From: Bdellovibrionales bacterium
Lineage (GTDB): Bacteria > Bdellovibrionota > Bdellovibrionia > Bdellovibrionales > UBA1609
Length of the DNA: 64,000 nt
Reading direction: 5' to 3'
NCBI GenBank assembly: GCA_965226095.1
Contig: OZ245336.1
Span: 1,033,308 to 1,097,307 of the forward strand
The translations under genes were made by a program, and so were the position numbers. Below, piece by piece: positions 3,229 through 34,055 of this stretch (the stretch's first letter is position 1; each line of letters begins with the position of its first letter). The notes under the pieces are model-generated. The model made no database searches. It was not told the origin of the DNA and saw only the letters and a program-made list of their open reading frames with translations.

Positions 3229-4258
3229 AGCAAGGGAAAAAGCCTCTACAGGCTTGCTTGTTTTATGGAATTTTTTGCAAAAAAGTTTTAAAAAAGAAAA
3301 TCATTTTTCAGATCAGATTTTTTATTTGTTATTAAGGAGCGGCGGCTGGCTTTTGATTTTCATTTTTGTTTACATGATGTGGAAAATTTTTCAAATGTCC
3401 TGGCCGGCCTTCTCCCATTTTGGTTTTTCTTTTTTTTCCAGTGCGCAATGGAATAGCTGGACTCAAGAGTATGGAGCTTTGTCGCTGATTTATGGCACCC
3501 TGGTTAGTTCTTTTTTAGCAGTGGTGTTGGCTGTGCCGGTGAGTGTAGGCGTTGCTCTTTTTTTAAATGAACTGGCGCCGGACTGGCTCAGTAAACCACT
3601 GTCTTTTGTCGTGGAAATGCTGGCGGCCGTGCCTTCTATTGTGTATGGCTTGTGGGGTTTGTTTGTACTGGCTCCTTTTTTAAGGGATCATGTTCAATCC
3701 TTTTTATCTGAATACTTTTCCTTTTTACCCATTTTTTCCGGTCCTTATTATGGTGTGAGTATGATGTGTGGTGGAGTGGTTTTAGCAATTATGATTGTGC
3801 CCACTATTTCTGCGGTTTGCCGGGAAGTGTTTCGCACTATTCCTGAATCTCATAGAGAGGCCGCTATAGGTTTAGGAACTACAAAGTGGGAAATGTTAAA
3901 AATAGCAGTTTTGAAAGGGGGGTTTTCAGGGATTATGGGAGCTATTGTTATGGGTCTTGGTCGCGCTTTGGGAGAGACAATGGCTGTAACAATGGTCATT
4001 GGTAATGCAACCTCTATTAAAGCCTCTTTGTTTGGACCAGCACAAACTATGGCCAGTATTTTAGCCAATCAATATGTGGAAGCGGATAACGAATTACATT
4101 TGGCCGCTTTAACAGCTGTTGGGTTTTCTTTGTTTTGTATTTCTTTGTTCATTAATTTGCTGGCTCGAGGATTGGTTTGGAGAATGGAAAGACGCTATCA
4201 CCCACCAAAAGTACCTCATGGTTTGAAAAAAACACAACAAGTAGCAGAGCAAAGCTGA
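3221..4258 (+). CDS. pstC: Phosphate ABC transporter permease
   Basis: Polytopic membrane protein containing the EAA-loop-like EAAIGLGTTKWEM. I prefer the ATG at 3221, which overlaps the pstS stop (ATGAGTAA), over the TTG at 3206. Confidence 0.88.
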   Translation: MSKAREKASTGLLVLWNFLQKSFKKENHFSDQIFYLLLRSGGWLLIFIFVYMMWKIFQMSWPAFSHFGFSFFSSAQWNSWTQEYGALSLIYGTLVSSFLAVVLAVPVSVGVALFLNELAPDWLSKPLSFVVEMLAAVPSIVYGLWGLFVLAPFLRDHVQSFLSEYFSFLPIFSGPYYGVSMMCGGVVLAIMIVPTISAVCREVFRTIPESHREAAIGLGTTKWEMLKIAVLKGGFSGIMGAIVMGLGRALGETMAVTMVIGNATSIKASLFGPAQTMASILANQYVEADNELHLAALTAVGFSLFCISLFINLLARGLVWRMERRYHPPKVPHGLKKTQQVAEQS

Positions 4259-4267
4259 GGAGATGTA

Positions 4268-5152
4268 ATGAATACCATGATCGACAAATTATCACACCAC
4301 TCTGGTGGAGCCAAGTCTCCTAGATATTATTGGAGAAAGTGGAGTAGTAGATGGGTCGTGGGGCTTTTGATATTCATGAGTGTACTGGCGGCTATTCCCT
4401 TTTTTTTCATTGTCTATTATGTGATCCAGCAAGGTTTTATGGCTATTAACTGGGACTTTTTTACCGGCTTACCTAAGCCACCCGGTGAAAGCGGAGGAGG
4501 AATGGCCAACGCCATTGTAGGTAGTGCGATTGTTGTAGGTTTGGCTTCTGTGGTGGGAATGCCCTGGGGTTTGAGTTTAGGAATTTATTTAAGTGAGTAT
4601 AGGGATACAAGAACGGCCAGTTTATTAAGATTTGTCATTGATGTGTTGTTGAGTGCTCCTTCTATTGTTGTGGGTATTTTTATTTATGTTATTTTGGTGA
4701 CTCGCTTTGGTTTTTCCTCTTATGCCGGTTCAGCGGCCTTACTATTGATTATGCTACCTGTGACAGCTAGAGGTACAGAGGAGATTTTAAAACTCACTCC
4801 TGTTTCCATAAGGGAAGCTGGTTTGGCTTTGGGGATTTCCAGATGGAAAACAATTTTATTTATTTTAGTGCCAAGTGTTTTCAGTATGCTGTTGACAGTG
4901 CTGATGTTGGCCGTGGCTCGTATTGCTGGAGAAACAGCTCCATTGCTTTTCACCTCACTGGGTAATCAAGTTCATATCTCCAATCTGACAGAGCCAGTAG
5001 CCACTTTACCTGTGCAGATTTATGAATATTCCAAGAGCGGATTTGAGCAACTGGAAGGACAGGCCTGGGCCGGTGCAATGGTGTTGGTGGGTTTTGTTTT
5101 TTTGGTCAATCTTCTCACCCGTATTACTTTCTTTTTTTATAAAAGGAAATAA
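4268..5152 (+). CDS. pstA: Phosphate ABC transporter permease
   Basis: 294 aa membrane protein with the EAA loop REAGLALGISRWKT. It occupies the second permease position in the pst operon. Confidence 0.88.
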   Translation: MNTMIDKLSHHSGGAKSPRYYWRKWSSRWVVGLLIFMSVLAAIPFFFIVYYVIQQGFMAINWDFFTGLPKPPGESGGGMANAIVGSAIVVGLASVVGMPWGLSLGIYLSEYRDTRTASLLRFVIDVLLSAPSIVVGIFIYVILVTRFGFSSYAGSAALLLIMLPVTARGTEEILKLTPVSIREAGLALGISRWKTILFILVPSVFSMLLTVLMLAVARIAGETAPLLFTSLGNQVHISNLTEPVATLPVQIYEYSKSGFEQLEGQAWAGAMVLVGFVFLVNLLTRITFFFYKRK

Positions 5153-5198
5153 AAAGTTTTGTCTGGACATTTCAAAAATTTAAAGTTTATAAGGAAAC

Positions 5199-5966
5199 AT
5201 GTCTCTTAACGAAAATGTATTGTTACAAATAAAAAATTTGGAAGCTGGTTTTTCCGGCACTCAGGTTTTAAAAAATATTAGTATGAAGGTGGTGCCCAAT
5301 AAGGTGTTGGCAGTGATTGGACCTTCTGGTTGTGGGAAGTCCACTTTTTTAAGGTGCCTTAATCGAATGCATGAAGAGGTTAAGGGAGCTTATGTTAGTG
5401 GAGAGATTTATCTCAATAAAAAAAATATTTATGATACAAATATGGATCCGGTTTTAGTTCGTCGGCAAATTGGCATGGTCTTTCAAAAGGCCAATCCTTT
5501 TCCAGGACTAAGTATTTTTGATAATGTGGCAGTGGGCTTAAGACTCATGGGAGTGAAAAAATCAGTATTAGTAGAGAAAGTGGAAAACTCTCTTAAGGAT
5601 GCGGCCTTATGGTCGGAGGTGAAAGATATTCTCAAGCGGCCAGGTACCTCTTTATCTGGTGGTCAACAGCAAAGGTTATGCATTGCCAGAGCTTTGGCCG
5701 TCAATCCTGATGTGATTTTAATGGATGAACCGACTTCTGCTTTGGATCCGATATCTACTGCCCGAGTGGAGGCTTTGATTCAACAGTTGAAAAAACAAGT
5801 CACTGTGGTGATTGTTACTCATAATATGCAACAGGCGGCGCGTATTTCTAATAAAACCGCTTTTTTACTTATGGGTGAATTGATAGAATATGAAAAAACC
5901 TCTACACTTTTTACAACTCCTTCTCATGAAAAAACAGAAGCTTACATTACAGGAAGGTTTGGATGA
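5199..5966 (+). CDS. pstB: Phosphate ABC transporter ATP-binding protein
   Basis: Walker [13 protein letters not shown] signature LSGGQQQRL and Walker [12 protein letters not shown]. The 255 aa length is typical for PstB. Confidence 0.92.
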
Positions 5967-6655
5967 GCAAGTTACAAAGTAAATTGGATGAACGACTCAA
6001 TTATATTAAGAGTCTTATTTTGGATATGGGGGGACTGGTGGAGAAAACCATATCCGATTCCAGTGCCTGCTTATTGAAAGATAAACTAAATAATCAGTTT
6101 TTGGAAAAACTGCAAAAACGGGAAGAGAAGATTAATACGTTTCACTTAAAGATAGCTCGTTCCTGTTTTAAAAATTTGGCTCGTGAAAGTCCGGTGGCTC
6201 GTGATCTCAGGCTGATACTGGCCATTATCAATGCCAACACGGATTTGGAGAGAATGGGGGATTTGGCTTTTAATATCGCTGTGAAGGGACAGGTTCTACA
6301 AAGAGATCCTCTGCTGGAGGCCTCTTTTAAATTATTTGAAAAAATGTTTTCACAGGTGATTAAGATGACTCATGAGTCTTTATCCGCTTTTGTAGAAGGA
6401 AATGAAAAGTTGGCTCGCGAGATATTACTTCAAGATGATATTGTGGATCATATCAGAGATGATATTCGCTCACATGTAGAAAAGATTTGTTTCTCTAATG
6501 CTCAAGTCATAAAACCTTGTATTGATTTAATTACTATTGCCGGAGATCTGGAACGTATTGCCGATCATGTGACCAATATTGCTGAAGAAGTGATCTTTTT
6601 GGAAACCGGTGACGATATCAGACACCAGCACGGATCTGATTCAGAAGAAAATTAA
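5963..6655 (+). CDS. phoU: Phosphate signalling complex protein PhoU
   Basis: 230 aa with two PhoU repeats, each carrying a D/E-LERxxD motif ([13 protein letters not shown] and [14 protein letters not shown]). Its start overlaps the pstB stop. Confidence 0.9.
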
Positions 6656-6677: not shown

Positions 6678-7679
6678 TTAAATAAGTTCTTGAATTTTTT
6701 GTAAAATTTCTAATTTAATATCTTTTGTATAATTCTGTAATAAAGCTCCTGAAGAGTGTGCATGTCCGCCACCATTAAAGTTTTCAGCCAAGCCGGAGAC
6801 ATCTATAAATTTACTTCTAAAACTGAGTTTATATTGATTTTCTGCTAATTGGACAATCAGTGCCGCTACTTTGATAGATGGTATTTTTAAAGTCATTTCA
6901 ATAAAATCACAAGCGTCTGTCACATAAAGATCATGGCTTAATAAAATATCTTGATTTATTTTTAATATGGCAATGCTTTCCTTATTAAAATATTCCACTT
7001 GTTGGATTGTCTGTGCTAGTAAATTCAATTTCTTTTTGCTCATGTTAAACAGATGGTGATAAATAGTTCGATGTTCTTCTATATAGGAAAACAGTTCTCC
7101 GCAAATTTTATAAGAATTGGCTGAATTTTTAATAAATTGAAAGTTTTGAGTATCTGATAAGATACTCACATATAAAGCAATGGCAATACTAGTATTCATT
7201 TCCAGTTTTAATTCTTTAAGTAAGGAGTAAATGATTTCTCCAGTACTGGCGGCCGTAGCATCCACAAAATATTCGGCATCCGTGCAATAGGAAGGAGGTG
7301 AATTTTTTAATAAACAATGGTGATCAATAAAAATAATTTTTTTACATTTTGTTTTTAACTCTGTATATAGAGGTTCGATCAGACGGCAGTCGTTAGTATC
7401 ACAAATGAGAGCTAAATCACAGTTTTCGATTGGTGTTTTTAAATGATCAAAAGATTCAATATCTTTTTTAGGGATAAAAAAATCATATTTTTTAGAAATT
7501 GGATCCACTGTCAGGATTCGTGTTTTCTTTTTGAGTTGGTTAAAGCTATGATAAAGCGCTACAATGGAACCCAAGCCATCGCCATCGCAGGTTTTATGTG
7601 TTGTTAGTAAAATAGATTCAGATTTTTGAATATCTGAGATTAATTGGTTAATTTGTATATTGCTTACAGATTGAGGCAT
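6678..7679 (-). CDS. DHH-family phosphoesterase (NrnA-like oligoribonuclease/pAp phosphatase)
   Basis: 333 aa with the motifs HKTCDGDGLGS, IDHH and the DHHA1 GGGHAHSSG. Confidence 0.8.
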   Translation of the reverse strand: MPQSVSNIQINQLISDIQKSESILLTTHKTCDGDGLGSIVALYHSFNQLKKKTRILTVDPISKKYDFFIPKKDIESFDHLKTPIENCDLALICDTNDCRLIEPLYTELKTKCKKIIFIDHHCLLKNSPPSYCTDAEYFVDATAASTGEIIYSLLKELKLEMNTSIAIALYVSILSDTQNFQFIKNSANSYKICGELFSYIEEHRTIYHHLFNMSKKKLNLLAQTIQQVEYFNKESIAILKINQDILLSHDLYVTDACDFIEMTLKIPSIKVAALIVQLAENQYKLSFRSKFIDVSGLAENFNGGGHAHSSGALLQNYTKDIKLEILQKIQELI

Positions 7680-7949: not shown

Positions 7950-8234
7950 AAAACTAAACAATTAATTATCATAAAAATATTTTTATATGTTCTGTGTTTC
8001 TAATAAAAAAATCTTGACAGGTTTTTTGATGCTTATATCTCTTCACACTTGCTATTTTTATAGCATCCAAATGTTTTTTTCAGCTTAAGAATAAAAAAGC
8101 CAGTGTATAAGACTATTAGGTGGCTTTAAAGTGAAGCTATAACTGTGTTCAACCTTTATAAAAATCTCCTTTTAAAACCTCATGTTATATTGTTTTTGTT
8201 AAGAAATAATTATCAACATAGGAGGCATGTTTAT

Positions 8235-9077
8235 ATGTACAAAAACCAAGAAAAACAAAATAGGCAAACTGTTCGTCATTCCCGTGAAAACGGGAATCCA
8301 GTGGGCTGGATACCTGCATTCGCAGGTATGACAGATAATCAATTACTTTTGCAAACAAAAAATCTAGTACAAAAAGAAAGACAAATTAATATCCAAGTTC
8401 TTCAGCACTTACAGGAAATAGAAAACAGGAAACTCTATTTGGAGAGAGGCTTTCCAAGCCTTTTTGAATATGCTGTTAAAGAACTTGGCTATAGCGAAAG
8501 CTCAGCCTATAGAAGAATCAAAGCCATGAAGCTTTGTAAAGAACTGCCAGAAACAAAACTGAAAATGGCAAAAGGAGAATTGAATCTTTGCACTGCCAGC
8601 AAGCTTCAAAGTGTGTTTGAAAAGCAGGAAAAACAGATAAAAAATAAGGCAATTCAACAGCAGGCTATGACAACTAAAATGCTGTTGGATAAAAATAAAA
8701 AAGATAAGTTAAATCAAAAGCTTACTAAAAATAACGCACCTATTATTCACAGTGAAGAATTGCTGCGTCATCAAGTACCTATAAGTAAAGACCAAAAAAG
8801 AGATTTGATTGAGCAAGTGCAAGGCAAGTCCAGGAAGGAAACAGAACAATTACTGTCCAATACTTTTCCTGAGGTTTGTAATGAGAAAGAAAAAGTCAGA
8901 AATATAAATAATAACAAAGTGGAAATAAAAATAATTGTGGACAAAGACTGCCAGCAAAAACTGGAAGATTTAAAAAAGCTATTATCCCACAAAAATCCTA
9001 ATAGAGAGGTGATCAGAAAAAACACAAAGATCGTAGAGCTAAATAGGAAAAGCCCTCAGGCGGTTTTTCCTATTTAG
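8235..9077 (+). pseudogene. Truncated or decayed copy of the HNH-family repeat gene
   Basis: The ATG at 8235 is preceded by AGGAGG. The protein tracks the left copy up to ...LLSHKNPN. A different ~120-bp segment (9013-9132) then replaces 36 bp of the left copy and introduces a stop at 9075-9077. Homology resumes at TTAGGCTTAAAC and then ends in REP-like elements before mgtE, so no room remains for an HNH domain. Confidence 0.6.
8275..8329. repeat. REP-like double palindromic element in frame in the right gene copy
   Basis: GTCATTCCCG-TGAAAA-CGGGAAT followed by ATACCTGC-ATTC-GCAGGTAT, the mirror image of 722-776. Confidence 0.75.
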
Positions 9078-17951: not shown

Positions 17952-19163
17952 TCAAATCTGATCTTCATCAGTTGATTTTATTTTAGACTCTATCGATTCA
18001 TCTTCTTCTCGCAATAGAGAACGTCCCTTTAAAATATGCGTGACCATTTGTATACCGCGAACAGCTCTTCGAGATTGTTCCAAGTGTTCTTCGAGTTTTT
18101 GCTGAAGTTCGCTGTATTTATCTTTATGTGTGTTTAAATCCATTTTAGAGCGTTCAATTTGTTGCTTTAATTGCAATATGTAGCGATTTTTTTCTCTCAC
18201 AAGAGTTTGACTGTCTACTTTTACTAATTCCAGACGGTTTTCCAGTTCTTTTTCACGGATTCGAATATGTTGCAAATTGTTAGACAACCTTTTTTCTAAT
18301 TCTTTGTTTTTTACCTGCATTTTATCCATCTCTCTGCTTTGATCAGATAGAGTGTTCATGAGAACTTTTTTTTCACTGAGAAATTCTTCACGACTTTCTT
18401 CGTAAGCTTTTTTAAGATCGTCATTTTTTACTAATACTTTGTCTAAGCGTTCTTTAAAAATATTAGCTGTAGTGATGAGTTTTTCATTTTCCTGTCTTAA
18501 TCGTTCAATTTCTTCCTCTAAAGAAGTCATTCTCTCTTGAGCCAGGCTCAAATTTTCTGATTGTTGAAGGGAGATTTGAATAGGCATGTGAGTTTCTTGG
18601 TTTTTTTGATATGAATGAGTGGCTAAACCGACATTGCCATCCATTGAGAAAGATGGGGAGGGAGGGGATTCCAAAGTTTTCTTCTCTTTTAAAGGCATTT
18701 GAATAATGGAAGCCGTGTTATTTAGGTTCTCTGGCTTCAGCTGTGTTGTGAGTGAGTTTGATGCAGATGTTGAGGAAATCTTATGTTTTTTTAATTTTTT
18801 CTTTGTTTTTTCTTTGTTTTCAGAAGTGAGACCGGACTCATTTGGTTTAAATTCCATTAAACTCATGATTTCTGTGTCACTGCTCTTTATTATTTCCTTT
18901 TCACTTAAATCCTCTTTTTGGTCTAAAAATGGGATACCTGTTTCCACTGATGCATCTATTTCAGACAAATTGCTCTTTTCCTGATCTGCCGATATATGCT
19001 CTTTTATTGCTGATTCGGATTCTTCGGATTCTATAGAAAGCACATTTTCAGCTGATTCGTCCAATAAATTAGCAACTTCAGATAGGGAAGACTCTTGTTG
19101 ATACTCCTGGACCAAATCTTCCATTACAGTTTCAATCATTGCTGTGTTTTTTTTTCTATTCAT
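17952..19163 (-). CDS. Acidic, Ser/Glu/Lys-rich coiled-coil protein of unknown function
   Basis: 403 aa long ORF. The C-terminal half has heptad-like E/K/L-rich sequence, and I recognise no catalytic motif. Confidence 0.55.
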   Translation of the reverse strand: MNRKKNTAMIETVMEDLVQEYQQESSLSEVANLLDESAENVLSIESEESESAIKEHISADQEKSNLSEIDASVETGIPFLDQKEDLSEKEIIKSSDTEIMSLMEFKPNESGLTSENKEKTKKKLKKHKISSTSASNSLTTQLKPENLNNTASIIQMPLKEKKTLESPPSPSFSMDGNVGLATHSYQKNQETHMPIQISLQQSENLSLAQERMTSLEEEIERLRQENEKLITTANIFKERLDKVLVKNDDLKKAYEESREEFLSEKKVLMNTLSDQSREMDKMQVKNKELEKRLSNNLQHIRIREKELENRLELVKVDSQTLVREKNRYILQLKQQIERSKMDLNTHKDKYSELQQKLEEHLEQSRRAVRGIQMVTHILKGRSLLREEDESIESKIKSTDEDQI

Positions 19164-31715: not shown

Positions 31716-31848
31716 TTTCAGGCCTCCTATTGAGGAAGATTATACTATGGTTTTAATATAAATCAAAACGTTTATATCTTACTTACAGGAGGTAAATTTA
31801 GTCTTTTCGGGACGCACATTCCTGGAAAGCCTTTCAGGGCTTTCCAGT

Positions 31849-31890
31849 TATACAATATATAATAACCTTGACATATCTATATATTGTATA
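31849..31890. promoter_or_regulatory. Perfect 13-bp inverted repeat flanking a TTGACA box; candidate operator for the downstream antitoxin-like gene
   Basis: TATACAATATATA (31849-31861), then N16 containing TTGACA (31868-31873), then TATATATTGTATA (31878-31890). It lies 12 bp upstream of the ATG at 31902. Confidence 0.55.
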
Positions 31891-31901
31891 GGTAAGGTTT
31901 T

Positions 31902-32117
31902 ATGAAGAAGGAATATAATTTTTCAAAAATGAAGGAAGTAAAAAGTTCTCTTAAAGGAAAGAAGAGCATAGGAATTAATCTAAGTCATGAAGTAATAGAC
32001 TACTTTAAAAGACTAAGCAAAGAGGCAAATGTTTCTTATCAACAGCTTATTAATTTTTATCTTCTTGATTGTGTAAAAAAACAAAAAAAACTATCTATGA
32101 AATGGACAGGTTCATAA
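31902..32117 (+). CDS. Ribbon-helix-helix type II antitoxin-like protein (BrnA-like), with no adjacent toxin gene
   Basis: 71 aa, MKKEYNFSKMK...KKSIGINLSHEVIDYFKRLSKEANVSYQQLINFYLLDC...KLSMKW. It fits the xYDFSKxK...I(R)LDxDVLxxFK...YQTLIN..L pattern of BrnA/CopG-type antitoxins. Confidence 0.6.
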   Translation: MKKEYNFSKMKEVKSSLKGKKSIGINLSHEVIDYFKRLSKEANVSYQQLINFYLLDCVKKQKKLSMKWTGS

Positions 32118-32135
32118 GTTTAAGAAATAAATAAG

Positions 32136-32535
32136 CAGGATTTGCCTACTACACTCACTCGCGTCCGGCTCGTTCGCTGCGTAGGCTCGCCTCGTGAGCT
32201 CAGAAAATCGTCCGGATTTTCTGCCTCGTATTGAATACTTATCGCATTCAACACGAGTCGCTCACTCATTTCAAATCCTGCGCAGATAAAATAATCAGGG
32301 AGCGATAGCCCCTTGATTATTTTAAATGACCACGGCAGGATTTGCCTACTACACTCACTCGCGTCCAGCTCGTTCGCTGCGTAGGCTCGCCTCGTGAGCT
32401 CAGAAAATCGTCCGGATTTTCTGCCTCGTATTGAATACTTATCGCATTCAACACGAGTCGCTCACTCATTTCAAATCCTGCGCAGATAAAATAATCAGGG
32501 AGCGATAGCCCCCTGATTATTTTAAATGACCACGG
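32136..32535. repeat. Two tandem 200-bp units, each ending in a copy of the tRNA-Arg 3' end
   Basis: The period is exactly 200 bp (32136, 32336 and 32536 all begin GCAGGATTTG). The units differ at 2 positions (32167/32367 and 32313/32513). Each unit has a 10-bp closing inverted repeat, GCAGGATTTG...CAAATCCTGC, and at least three internal hairpins. Confidence 0.9.
32488..32523 (-). terminator. Hairpin immediately 3' of tRNA-Arg (copy at 32288..32323)
   Basis: On the minus strand it reads AAAATAATCAGGGGGC-TATC-GCTCCCTGATTATTTT, a ~16-bp stem with one mismatch whose 3' side ends in a U-rich run. It starts 4 nt after the tRNA discriminator base. Confidence 0.5.
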
Positions 32536-32600
32536 CAGGATTTGAACCTGCGACCTAGAGTTTAGGAAACTCTTGCTCTATCCAACTGAGCTACGTGGCC
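32527..32600 (-). tRNA. tRNA-Arg (anticodon CCT)
   Basis: Hand-folded cloverleaf of 74 nt: acceptor GGCCACG/CGTGGTC (one G-U), D arm GCTC-AGTTGGATA-GAGC, anticodon arm AGAGT-TTCCTAA-ACTCT, variable AGGTC, T arm GCAGG-TTCAAAT-CCTGC, discriminator A. No CCA is encoded. Confidence 0.9.
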
Positions 32601-33455: not shown

Positions 33456-34055
33456 TTATTGATGGGGAGTGTTTATCATAAAGATTTTCAACTGTTGATC
33501 TTTATCTTTTTTTATCCAGATTTTATTCTGACCTATGGAGGCACCGGTATTGCTACAGGACATGTCTTCAAAATTTTGCTCCTGGATAACTTGTAGAACA
33601 TGGGCATTAAAAACAGATGGGAGTGAATGATAAAATTCCTCTATAGATTGTATGCGTGTAAAACTTCCGGAAGTTGAGATCACTTGTAAAGGGAAGGTCA
33701 GTATATTTGGCATATGTTCTTTTAATGATTCAAAAGAGTGCTTACCTTCGCATGGTTGAAGGTTTTCCTCTTGTTGTTCAACAATCCAACTCTTCATTTG
33801 AATAAAAAAGTGAGTTGGTGAAAAAGAATTGCATTCTATACATGCCGCTACAGCTTCTGTTTCATTATTATCCAGTGTTTGTTTATTGAAGCACTTATAA
33901 TTTTTCACAAATTGTTTCAAATCCTGTAAAAAATTAGATAGGTCATCTGGACTGCCGTGTCCATAGGTGTATACTGAACATTTTGAAGTATATGCCTGAG
34001 CTTGCGGTGCAATCACACTGATGAAAAAGATTATAAAAAACAATATATTTTTCAT
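33456..34055 (-). CDS. Secreted Cys-containing protein of unknown function
   Basis: 199 aa with the signal peptide MKNILFFIIFFISVIAPQAQA. I recognise no family. Confidence 0.55.
   Translation of the reverse strand: MKNILFFIIFFISVIAPQAQAYTSKCSVYTYGHGSPDDLSNFLQDLKQFVKNYKCFNKQTLDNNETEAVAACIECNSFSPTHFFIQMKSWIVEQQEENLQPCEGKHSFESLKEHMPNILTFPLQVISTSGSFTRIQSIEEFYHSLPSVFNAHVLQVIQEQNFEDMSCSNTGASIGQNKIWIKKDKDQQLKIFMINTPHQ

Follow-up and report, generated by a model that had tools for sequence, protein, structure and literature searches.

The module repeated in tandem behind a tRNA-Arg(CCT) gene in the 64-kb stretch of DNA analysed here (the window) was shown, by comparison with related genomes, to be a type-A member of a family of gene-less units of ~200-220 nt. 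At its 3' end, each unit has a segment conserved in sequence, R, and then CAAATCCTGC, which duplicates the T-loop/T-stem of the tRNA. The units were found only in the variable island 3' of tRNA-Arg(CCT), in a set of uncultured Bdellovibrionales that are close relatives of one another. They are probably the attachment or junction modules of a tRNA-anchored cassette island whose recombinase is encoded elsewhere.

The tRNA-Arg(CCT) gene was called by both ARAGORN and Rfam (tRNA, 71.5 bits) at 32527-32600 on the minus strand, as the earlier note on this DNA had proposed, and CCA is not encoded in it. The T-loop/T-stem segment of the gene, CAAATCCTGC (32535-32544), is termed the core and recurs downstream of the tRNA. 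The described order of tRNA, 182 nt, an 18-nt copy of the tRNA 3' part (CAAATCCTGCCGTGGTCA), 182 nt, and a 10-nt copy agreed with the sequence, and the exact period of 200 bp was borne out by TRF, which gave 2.0 copies with 99% matches over 32135-32544. The repeat starts (32136 and so on) had been placed one base off; GCAGGATTTG on the plus strand begins at 32135, 32335, and 32535. The proximal unit (32327-32526, minus strand, 200 nt) consists, in order, of a terminator, TCTGC, the inverted core, the hairpins HP1 and HP2, R, the core, and CGTGGTCA. The distal unit (32135-32326, minus strand, 192 nt) terminates at the core alone (32135-32144). The middle copy of the tRNA 3' part (32327-32344, minus strand) comprises the core CAAATCCTGC (32335-32344) and CGTGGTCA (32327-32334). 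A 114-nt stretch of the unit had exactly two occurrences, the chance expectation being 0 matches. The two differences between the copies were found at the positions reported before, 32167/32367 and 32313/32513; both belong to the distal copy, and each converts a predicted pair to A.C. An assembly artefact is an unlikely origin of the two copies because they differ at these positions and because the same architecture is present in independent assemblies.

The hairpin opening each unit had been called terminator-like. It was identified as an intrinsic terminator of the tRNA (32487-32524, minus strand) with an A-tract 5', a T-tract 3', and a 17-bp stem containing one G.U; over the first 40 nt of the unit, immediately behind the gene, a G+C-rich hairpin gives way to a T run. 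The distal terminator copy (32287-32324, minus strand) has one A.C mismatch. At the same position in the loci L056 and L057, the hairpin is retained with a wholly different stem sequence. The inverted copy of the tRNA T-loop/T-stem (32470-32481, minus strand; distal copy 32270-32281, minus strand) is 12 nt long when matched to the tRNA itself (TTCAAATCCTGC / GCAGGATTTGAA) and has the core at the unit's 3' end as its pairing partner. The resulting perfect 10-bp stem encloses the type-A domain. The inverted core and the next 14 nt are invariant across the window, L056, and L057. A single core variant, in L057, disrupts the stem and is not compensated.

HP1 (32425-32457, minus strand; distal copy 32225-32257) has 14 bp and a 5-nt loop. 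Its alignment contained two compensatory pairs, one G.U/G-C exchange, and one G.U present in all four copies, with 100% of the cells paired. HP2 (32401-32423, minus strand; distal copy 32201-32223) has 9 bp and a 5-nt loop, and one of its pairs runs from A-U in the window through G.U in L057 to G-C in L056. Segment R (GGACGATTTTCTGAGC...GAGTGAGTGTAGTAGG, ~70 nt, 32345-32414, minus strand; distal copy 32145-32214) is conserved by sequence and was found in type-A units, type-B units, and cassette junctions. On the tRNA strand the unit folds at -94.8 kcal/mol (z = -8.7 vs shuffled sequence) and on the opposite strand at -72.9 kcal/mol (z = -7.4). The predicted tRNA-sense fold contains six G.U pairs, not the single non-Watson-Crick pair reported earlier, and these pairs agree with the preference for the tRNA-sense strand deduced from it. 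Among the stems listed in the earlier note, the two main hairpins and GCCTAC/GTAGGC hold in the homologues, whereas GTGAGC/GCTCAC (given as AGCTC...GAGCT) is broken in L056. In type A four pairs are compensated, a score reached by 2/500 shuffles. The hairpins of the 5' half of the units thus appear to be selected for pairing, and might contribute to site architecture, fold as a single strand, or be part of an RNA.

Relatives were reached by a protein search with the neighboring Mrp followed by inspection of the contexts of the Mrp 90% cluster, and by the same procedure starting at the citrate-synthase side; searching for exact matches to the window's own Mrp and BrnA proteins gave no hit. The six closest genomes reached (neighboring Mrp product ~95% identical) and the window gave a comparison set of seven assemblies. 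Breakpoints of short-read assemblies coincide with the repeat spot (L004/L034, L054/L057, L056). With blastn and nhmmer, the whole window unit was recovered in L056 (84%) and L057 (87%), and R plus core was recovered in L051, L052, L053, and L055, with several copies per island. Type-A units (window and two other assemblies) consist of the terminator, the inverted core, two hairpins, R, and the core. Type-B units (four genomes) have another 5' half with a long hairpin, followed by the same R and core; they have no inverted core. A type-B profile matched the window at 32414-32327 (nhmmer, E = 7e-27) and at 32214-32135 (E = 6e-24). Full copies of CCTGCCGTGGTCA numbered 14 across the seven assemblies.

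In all seven assemblies the first island position is occupied by a gene-less unit. Tandem arrangements recur: L055 has two adjacent type-B units ~85% alike and a third one after a cassette, and L053 has ~1.5 tandem type-B units. Compensation was pronounced in type B, affecting 11/24 pairs of the long hairpin and 16/52 pairs overall (0/500 shuffles reached the score in either case). In 6/6 units the strand opposite to the tRNA sense gave the better fold of this hairpin, and on that strand its apex reads GCGAAGC/GTGAAAC, the former of which we take to correspond to the very stable d(GCGAAGC) DNA mini-hairpin. A short motif, YYGGAC, was read by eye three to four times per type-B unit. The earlier note had allowed that the module might be an inert duplication unique to this locus and devoid of compensatory changes. 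Homologous units are present in related genomes and their hairpins carry compensatory changes; thus, the module is not a strain-specific orphan.

The island is flanked by conserved genes, YicC-gmk-rpoZ-relA/Mrp on one side and a Sel1-like gene and prpC on the other, and is hypervariable, its gene content being different in every genome. The genes upstream of the tRNA-Arg array encode Mrp, YicC, and an uncharacterized 199-aa protein. Deeper in the island, R plus core lies at the joints between BrnTA, HipBA, AbiE, and DarTG cassettes; many sites are truncated or carry insertions. Homology stops directly after CAAATCCTG(C), and at least seven different sequences follow. Cassette left ends are heterogeneous; the sole conserved end is the one with the structured site. 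Cassette genes are mostly oriented against the array direction. L052 and L055 share a BrnTA block of 616 bp at 98.4% identity, against ~88% for the adjacent units, and the array position of the block differs between the two.

In the window, the junction of R-core with cargo (...CAAATCCTGC|TTATTTATTTCTTAAACT, 32118-32144, minus strand) matches base for base a junction at 7275-7320 of L051 that precedes a HipB/BrnA-like gene. Next to it lies an orphan CopG/BrnA-like antitoxin gene (31902-32117, plus strand, 71 aa, Pfam sub-threshold) with no toxin partner, left over from a BrnTA/Hip-type island cassette; at the DNA level it is 87-88% identical to the L003 and L051 BrnA genes. From there to the conserved right flank (Sel1-like gene, prpC), the island continues over 31716-31901, a stretch tentatively assigned as containing sequence that resembles a brnTA promoter and a small hairpin (31822-31847) of a type also present within the R variants of relatives. 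Other repeats occupy the same tRNA. A second, unrelated att family is represented by a 1-kb TA island in L003 between the tRNA and TTCCTGCCGTGGTCACCA; its right end and 3'-end copy also close an AbiE cassette in L055. L005 has a 114-bp x 2.5 array at tRNA-Arg.

These arrangements would be explained if R plus core served as the attachment or right-end site of the cassettes, which recombination at the core would insert, remove, and reshuffle. The primary site would be the tRNA's own T-arm, and the recombinase would be supplied from elsewhere in the genome. A unit directly on the tRNA would have to start with CGTGGTCA to complete it; the tRNA-proximal unit would then restore the last 8 nt of the tRNA, and type A would add its terminator. 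Completion of the tRNA by CGTGGTCA, together with the type-A terminator, would explain why gene-less units always come first. We infer that the pair in the window arose by recent tandem duplication, the copies being 99% identical to each other vs 84-87% to homologues. The duplication may have proceeded by recombination of the core in the tRNA with the core ending a single unit. The middle copy combines the left context of the distal copy with the right context of the tRNA; as judged from these bases, the middle junction is the exact chimera expected from such an exchange. An excised 200-bp circle, if formed, would join ...GTAGTAGGCAAATCCTGC|CGTGGTCATTTAAAAT... A pure accident at the 10-bp microhomology was discarded, the distal junction being shared with L051 and predating the duplication.

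Of the two readings offered by the earlier note, the one closest to the evidence makes the module the product of a tiny integrative element whose att site is the tRNA 3' end. R plus core bounds different cassettes in relatives, a second att family sits on the tRNA, and the noted absence of an integrase also holds. No tyrosine or serine recombinase was found in the 64 kb (50 ORFs, Pfam), and precomputed Pfam annotation gave no integrase in four complete islands, where an IS3 transposase within hipA of L058 is the only transposase- or recombinase-type gene. This lack of a recombinase gene in the window and the four complete islands speaks against junction modules. So do further points: ordinary double-stranded att arms need no covarying hairpins, yet pairing is selected here, and the single variable cassette end fits classical attP x attB elements poorly. 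Equally, a displaced original tRNA 3' end was found at the far end of this family's arrays neither in the window nor in L058, whose right flank follows immediately upon the last core copy with CGTGGTCA missing; L003 does have such an end, belonging to the other att family. Homologous exchange through the repeats and the conserved flanks could possibly yield much of the same pattern.

Known tRNA-targeting elements were used for comparison. As in these, direct repeats of the tRNA 3' part (18-nt and 10-nt in the window) bound DNA, and conserved synteny is interrupted by content that varies between relatives. An integrase in or beside the element was absent from the window and the four islands, so the locus fits the integrase-less (cis-mobilizable) subclass only. 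The tycheposons of Prochlorococcus are tRNA-anchored islands arising by successive integration (bioRxiv 10.1101/2020.12.28.424599), and the ssrA islands of Dehalococcoides, also formed by successive integration, are of the same class (PMC3146451). Such islands include cis-mobilizable elements with att sites kept and the integrase absent (bioRxiv 10.1101/2020.12.28.424599; PMC3146451). The locus resembles them in its variable island directly 3' of a tRNA or tmRNA gene, in the partial gene-3'-end copies that separate cargo blocks, with junctions in the T-loop region, in having some blocks without integrase, and in its adaptive or defence cargo. It differs in that no integrase or integrase fragment was found in any of the four complete islands, in blocks that are as small as ~200 nt and gene-less, in a site with a 70-nt conserved arm and structurally selected hairpins, and in the one conserved end per block.

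Two further systems share single traits with the units. The pdif modules of Acinetobacter plasmids consist of genes, frequently TA pairs (brnTA, for example), that lie between short recombination sites and, having no recombinase of their own, are moved by an enzyme encoded elsewhere. However, pdif sites are 28-bp XerC/XerD sites of alternating orientation on plasmids, whereas the sites studied here lie on the chromosome, are directly repeated, and consist of a tRNA segment plus a long arm. The attP of lambda-type phages comprises ~240 bp with arm sites. The gene-less units, at 200-220 bp, equal a complete attP in size, and their YYGGAC repeats might correspond to arm-type sites. In contrast, no cognate integrase is known for the units, and compensatory hairpin evolution is not known from the arms of lambda-type sites.

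The units might instead encode a structured noncoding RNA on the tRNA-sense strand, extending over ~147 nt from inverted core to core (32335-32481, minus strand), with the tRNA-like end and the array position being secondary. We consider this unlikely. In its favor, pairing in HP1, HP2, and GCCTAC/GTAGGC is preserved through the four compensated pairs, and HP1 and HP2 are never disrupted. Every wobble pair, including the A-U, G.U, G-C series and the fully conserved G.U, lies on the tRNA-sense strand, which also folds better. The domain has 51% G+C in a 35.7% genome, placing it in the top 0.2% of 147-nt windows, and in the array a terminator comes after the first domain. On the other hand, only 5 nt separate the domain from a strong terminator upstream, leaving no space for a promoter; promoter-like matches were at chance level (3 found vs 2.6 expected). 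The part common to the whole family, R, is conserved by sequence and not by structure, its stems being often mismatched, the type-B hairpin prefers the opposite strand, and partial R-core copies are located at gene-cassette junctions. The terminator between tRNA and domain also makes co-transcription with the tRNA unlikely. The second reading of the earlier note, in which microhomology duplicated an RNA made together with the tRNA, is only partly tenable; the distal 10-nt junction is older than the duplication and no by-product of it.

The sequence searches point in the same direction as the earlier statement that the module matches no RNA family: an Rfam 15 scan passed the tRNA alone, and the best non-tRNA match (26.7 bits vs a cut-off of 128) covers only the terminator. 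Scanning 315 kb with a covariance model built from the 147-nt domain gave no extra copy. Exact and degenerate pieces of the module gave nothing real in genome contigs (two chance matches inside genes), viral contigs (one chance match in a coding region), or metagenome contigs, and blastn of the module against phage and plasmid records gave no match. A 50-aa ORF inside the module had no relative among 5.8 billion proteins and was treated as spurious.

A second alternative, to which we assign a rather low probability, is that the units are sites of an undescribed cassette system in which the tRNA T-arm is used as an integron uses attI, with single-strand folding and an enzyme from elsewhere acting at the core CAAATCCTGC. 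TA and defence cassettes, and even empty ones of 200 nt, would each carry one structured site, and folding of the type-A site would rebuild a duplex copy of the tRNA segment. The arrays do resemble those of integrons: cassettes are small, many being TA or non-coding, a structured site lies at one end with its structure conserved and its sequence varying, and the two ends of the type-A site are inverse complements, as in attC. In contrast to integrons, no IntI and no attI are present, the first site is the tRNA, and the array is anchored in a tRNA gene with its cassette genes mostly running counter to it. RYYYAAC/GTTRRRY cores are absent, the two ends of the type-A unit being GCAGGATTTG ... CAAATCCTGC, and type B lacks an inverse core.

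It is more doubtful still that the unit itself acts as a folded single strand, like integron attC or the attP of CTX phage, with inverted core and core rebuilding the T-arm duplex for a recombinase that exchanges it with the tRNA or another core. The perfect 10-bp stem, invariant in three genomes, is what such a site would show, and the hairpins keep their structure while their sequence varies, most clearly in type B. The conserved cassette end is the structured one, with a single such end per cassette; the TA-module cargo is that of chromosomal integrons, and the type-B apex sits on the better-folding strand. Yet type B has no inverted core, types A and B favor opposite strands, neither integron-type cores nor an IntI-like gene occur near the array, and the L057 core variant breaks the stem.

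The unit is quite improbably an inert scar, made up of decayed ends of old elements, duplicated once by unequal crossing-over, and functionless beyond its terminator. The missing recombinase gene, the many truncated or interrupted sites, and the two window differences, both of which weaken distal-copy stems, would suit decay. Decay is contradicted by the substitutions in HP1, HP2, and the type-B hairpin, which are overwhelmingly pair-preserving, by a 30-nt stretch around the inverted core that is invariant amid DNA of 84-88% identity, and by the retention of gene-less units at the first position. A miniature inverted-repeat transposable element landed by chance beside the tRNA is very improbable: it would account for the 10-bp terminal inverted repeats, the small size, and the strong fold, but the repeats copy the neighboring tRNA and are missing from type B, there is no target-site duplication, and neither the rest of the 64-kb window nor ~315 kb of related loci beyond the island yielded a copy.

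Other identities were rejected. A degenerate pseudo-tRNA within the core would have AGCTCA as its only shared word, a match reached by 1674/2000 shuffles. A primer-binding-site analogy fails for lack of a CCA complement and of a reverse transcriptase, the absence of which, claimed before, held for window and islands (Pfam). REP/BIME elements, retrons, and ribozymes were discarded on the grounds of no Rfam match and no dispersed copies, and a tRNA-like minihelix was dropped as CGTGGTCA found no partner.

Defence and TA gene islands beside tRNA genes are common; to our knowledge, the mechanism by which integrase-less blocks are exchanged is mostly unknown. As junction modules, the units at this locus provide a compact, comparable set with a 10-nt core, a conserved arm, and pairing-selected hairpins, in arrays that differ between very close genomes. 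They also indicate that a tRNA gene can apparently need an inserted unit to supply its terminator and its final 8 nt. If the units make RNA, they would represent a new family linked to defence islands. If a trans-acting recombinase were tied to the sites, they would reveal a very small (~200 bp) recombination substrate and a mechanism of cassette exchange in an uncultured, predatory or symbiotic lineage about which little is known.

Behind tRNA-Arg(CCT) (32527-32600, minus strand), Tandem Repeats Finder reported a 200-bp period with 2.0 copies and 99% matches at 32135-32544, confirming the tandem module described in the earlier note. A 114-nt piece of the unit occurred exactly twice in the 64-kb window, where none was expected by chance. 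In the direction of the tRNA, each unit comprises CGTGGTCA, the final 8 nt of the tRNA; a terminator hairpin of 17 bp with an A run on one side and a T run on the other; TCTGC; GCAGGATTTG, the tRNA T-loop/T-stem inverted (12 nt against the tRNA itself); the hairpins HP1 (14 bp) and HP2 (9 bp); a segment of about 70 nt, here called R; and CAAATCCTGC, the 10-nt core that copies the T-loop/T-stem. GCAGGATTTG starts at 32135, 32335 and 32535, one base lower than first reported. A complete 18-nt repeat of the tRNA 3' part comes after the proximal unit, and the core alone after the distal one. The two differences between the copies, correctly located before (32167/32367 and 32313/32513), both lie in the distal unit, and each turns a predicted pair into A.C. 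The predicted fold of the unit had -94.8 kcal/mol (z = -8.7 against shuffled sequences) and that of the other strand -72.9 kcal/mol (z = -7.4). Its G+C content of 51%, against 35.7% for the window, ranked among the highest 0.2% of 147-nt windows.

Close relatives were found by a search with the Mrp protein (a cluster of ~95% identity) followed by look-up of the encoding loci, and the procedure was repeated from the citrate-synthase side. This gave six further assemblies (loci L051, L052/L058, L053, L054/L057, L055/L059 and L056). The window was syntenic with them on both flanks, one carrying relA, rpoZ, gmk, yicC and Mrp and the other a Sel1-like gene and prpC/prpB/prpD. The island between the flanks measured 0.8 to ~10 kb and differed in content in each genome; its cargo included BrnTA, HipBA, AbiEi/AbiEii, DarT-Macro, a DUF4145 protein, methyltransferases and unknown small ORFs. 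The island is a hot spot between conserved flanks. Short-read assemblies broke exactly at the array (L004/L034, L054/L057, L056), which is what repeated sites should cause. A 199-aa protein adjoining Mrp had syntenic counterparts in all close relatives, in some of which the ORF neighboring the counterpart gave a weak SNase match.

Homologous units were present in these islands. In L056, a whole type-A unit (the window type) lay directly behind the tRNA with 84% identity, the contig end falling inside the unit, and L057 carried one at a Hip-cassette junction with 87% identity. In L051, L052, L053 and L055, the tRNA was followed by a type-B unit, which differs in the 5' half: CGTGGTCA comes first, then a leader (TTGTTACTTGGACATACT), a long hairpin and a linker (CCCAAAGGACCAGCGAACTTAGGCTTGGAC), before R plus core as in the window. 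L055 7003-7089 matched positions 114-200 of the window unit with 99% identity, and a type-B profile had hits in the window at 32414-32327 (E = 7e-27) and 32214-32135 (E = 6e-24). With the same profile, complete or partial sites were located deeper in the islands at L055 9026-9288 and 12324-12381, L052 7737-7848 and 10072-10322, L051 7270-7300, and L053 7114-7304; more distant relatives gave no convincing match. L055 harbored two adjoining type-B units of only ~85% similarity, with another one beyond the AbiE cassette, and L053 about one and a half gene-less units in tandem. Tandem gene-less units are not peculiar to the window. By sequence comparison, the window module is one member of a gene-less unit family confined to the tRNA-Arg(CCT) island. 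The earlier note had allowed for an inert duplication unique to this strain; with homologous units in L056 and L057 and R plus core in the others, the window array is real and more than that. The motif YYGGAC (TTGGACAT, TTGGACCC, TTGGACGA, CCGGACGC) recurred three to four times per type-B unit in direct orientation (e.g. L055 6871-7089), with CCGGACGA and CTGGACGC as counterparts in the window unit; these copies could be arm-type protein-binding sites.

All sites were aligned on the core to compare their left and right contexts. R, on the left, was conserved, and homology ended directly after CAAATCCTG(C). The core was followed either by CGTGGTCA and a type-A or type-B start, which covered every full tRNA 3'-end copy, or by unrelated DNA beginning TTATTTATTT, CTCATAAG, ACAAGC, TATTGACG, CTACTTATTT or ATTTTTAAAC, the last being, in L058, the conserved right flank itself. 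As judged from this alignment, R plus core marks the cassette junctions. The distal junction of the window, GAGTGAGTGTAGTAGGCAAATCCTGC against TTATTTATTTCTTAAACTTA, is identical to L051 7275-7320, where it precedes a HipB/BrnA-like gene; the 10-nt distal copy is therefore an old junction of R-core with cargo, shared with L051, and did not arise through the duplication. The window units share 99% identity with each other and 84-87% with homologues, and the middle copy is an exact fusion of what lies left of the distal core with what lies right of the tRNA core. For these reasons, we read the window pair as the probable result of a single recent recombination between the tRNA core and the distal core, either site-specific or by unequal exchange.

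Several observations point to cassette exchange. A 616-bp BrnTA block was 98.4% identical in L052 and L055, in which the tRNA-proximal units share ~88%; it stood first after the unit in L052 and after the AbiE cassette in L055. The right end of that AbiE cassette with its 3'-end copy (...CCACTGACCTTG TTCCTGCCGTGGTCA) equals that of the island in the much more distant L003. At least two unrelated site families therefore use the 3' part of tRNA-Arg(CCT). The second family (L003 6946-7995, L055 8860-9030, and L034, a deletion derivative) has a conserved right end of the form ...TGTGCGTGATT...GGTTATCAACAGG...CCACTGACCTYG followed by TTCCTGCCGTGGTCA, and closes a BrnA plus Gp49/HTH block in L003 and the AbiE block in L055. 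In the window, an orphan ORF for a 71-aa CopG/BrnA-like antitoxin (31902-32117, plus strand) without brnT is the remnant of an island cassette. In L051, brnT comes after the homologous antitoxin gene, and the HipB-like partner of HipA carries a second, fused BrnA-like domain; a deletion between paralogous antitoxin genes seems to have produced the window copy. Small hairpins with the pattern CTGAAAG(N)C-loop-G(N)CTTTCAG recurred within and next to R variants and close to cassette promoters (window 31822-31847; L051 7225-7265; L052 10225-10300; L053 7255-7285 and 8660-8740; L055 9190-9255). These seem to form a family of their own, made up of short inserted palindromes or terminators.

No recombinase is encoded locally. 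Pfam analysis of 50 ORFs covering the window detected nothing beyond housekeeping genes, the BrnA-like remnant and the Sel1-like protein, upholding the reported lack of an integrase gene, and precomputed Pfam assignments contained no tyrosine or serine recombinase in the complete islands of L051, L058 (L052 genome) and L059 (L055 genome). The sole such gene there was an IS3 transposase: an IS3-family element (HTH_Tnp_1 plus rve) sits inside hipA at L058 14397-15541, the only transposase seen among the islands. Conserved-looking ORFs without a Pfam match at E <= 1e-5 occur in the window at 33456-34055, 60263-62257, 62267-62851 and 17952-19163 (all minus strand) and at 8145-9077 (plus strand). 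We infer a mechanism of cassette exchange in which R plus core would be the attachment site, the tRNA T-arm would be the primary site, and recombination at the core, by a recombinase supplied from elsewhere, would insert, remove and reorder cassettes. Insertion of a block immediately at the tRNA would part CAAATCCTGC from CGTGGTCA, so that only blocks starting with CGTGGTCA would be tolerated there. It would follow that a gene-less unit starting with CGTGGTCA comes first in every genome, and the terminator carried by type A would follow from placement directly on the tRNA.

The folds were compared among four type-A copies (two from the window, L056 and L057). HP1 had two pairs changed on both sides, one G.U<->G-C exchange and one G.U in all copies; a pair of HP2 appeared as A-U, G.U and G-C; and the GCCTAC/GTAGGC stem had one compensated pair. 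The compensatory changes sought in homologues were found in HP1, HP2 and GCCTAC/GTAGGC. Among the stems proposed earlier, these three kept pairing, and GTGAGC/GCTCAC was disrupted in L056. Overall, 96.6% of cells were paired, the covariation score was reached by 2 of 500 column shuffles, and the hairpin loops varied freely. The terminator stem was wholly different in sequence in L056 and L057 with hairpin and T run kept. At this comparative level, selection for pairing in the unit hairpins is evident. The stem between inverted core and core was invariant except for one uncompensated change in L057, and with almost no variation it was neither supported nor refuted. R was conserved in sequence and its predicted stems were often mismatched, and it is therefore easier to reconcile with an arm bound by protein than with a folded structure.

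All type-A wobble pairs lay on the tRNA-sense strand, the strand on which the type-A unit might act as a functional RNA, a reading we regard as unlikely. In type B, the stems of the long hairpin were almost unrelated between genomes and the apex was conserved; compensatory pairs numbered 11 of 24 in this hairpin and 16 of 52 overall, reached by none of 500 shuffles. All six type-B hairpins were more stable, by 4-14 kcal/mol, on the strand opposite to the tRNA. There the apex reads GCGAAGC (L055 7065-7095, likewise L052 and L053), GTGAAAC with a compensated pair (L051) or GCGTAGC (L055 unit 2). GCGAAGC matches the very stable d(GCGAAGC) DNA mini-hairpin and could point to a role as single-stranded DNA. 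The unit might accordingly recombine as a folded single strand, like an integron attC, with inverted core and core pairing so that a duplex version of the tRNA segment is restored; we consider this quite improbable. Both readings are kept alive by covarying hairpins, which ordinary att arms do not need, by the opposite strand preferences of types A and B, and by the single conserved end per cassette. An Rfam family member, a MITE and a retron were each rejected for the unit.

The Rfam check proposed in the earlier note returned the tRNA as its sole match, and the module itself has no Rfam family. Pieces of the module matched nothing real in species-representative genomes, viral contigs and JGI metagenomes, phage and plasmid records gave no blastn match, and no real relative emerged from a protein search with a 50-aa ORF that the module contains. 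The gene neighboring the tRNA encodes an Mrp/NBP35 ATPase that groups the window with small-genome uncultured Bdellovibrionales. The order Mrp to tRNA-Arg(CCT) was kept in ~20 species-level relatives (Mrp identity 70-79%); the module was absent from all of them, and the DNA downstream of the tRNA differed in almost each. In L003, the tRNA and TTCCTGCCGTGGTCACCA, a distal copy that keeps the CCA missing from the tRNA itself, enclose a 1-kb block encoding a BrnA-like protein and a Gp49/HTH toxin-antitoxin pair. In L005, a 114-bp unit is repeated 2.5 times, each beginning with a copy of the tRNA 3' part. Both arrangements hint at site-specific events at the tRNA. The L005 repeat (6937-7230, equal to L047 1366-1660) is AT-rich and unrelated to the window unit at the same tRNA; its units start with a 26-nt tRNA copy reading TTCAAAT versus TTCGAAT in the tRNA, and units 1 and 2 diverge by ~4%. 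L005 also carries a ~3-kb tandem duplication upstream of Mrp (588-1565, 3597-4574 and neighboring blocks), parts of which L003 matches twice (4877-6133 and 3739-4716). In L001, a 21-bp tandem repeat (GTTACTATATTACCCAGCA...) starts directly 3' of tRNA-Arg (6992-7060).

Integron arrays likewise have one structured site per cassette, structure kept over sequence, and toxin-antitoxin cargo, but the window family was rejected as an integron array since the defining IntI, attI and core motifs are missing. The closest described cases are tRNA- or tmRNA-anchored islands of successive insertions with partial gene copies between them, such as the tycheposons of Prochlorococcus (bioRxiv 10.1101/2020.12.28.424599) and the ssrA islands of Dehalococcoides, with a T-loop junction as here and integrase-less blocks discussed as cis-mobilizable elements (PMC3146451). 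The window family resembles these in anchoring, repeats and type of cargo, but differs in the complete absence of integrase genes, the 200-nt gene-less blocks and the long structured site. On the sequence evidence, the unit array is a new variation on tRNA-anchored, putatively att-bounded cassette islands, set apart by gene-less, structured junction units of an unusual kind.
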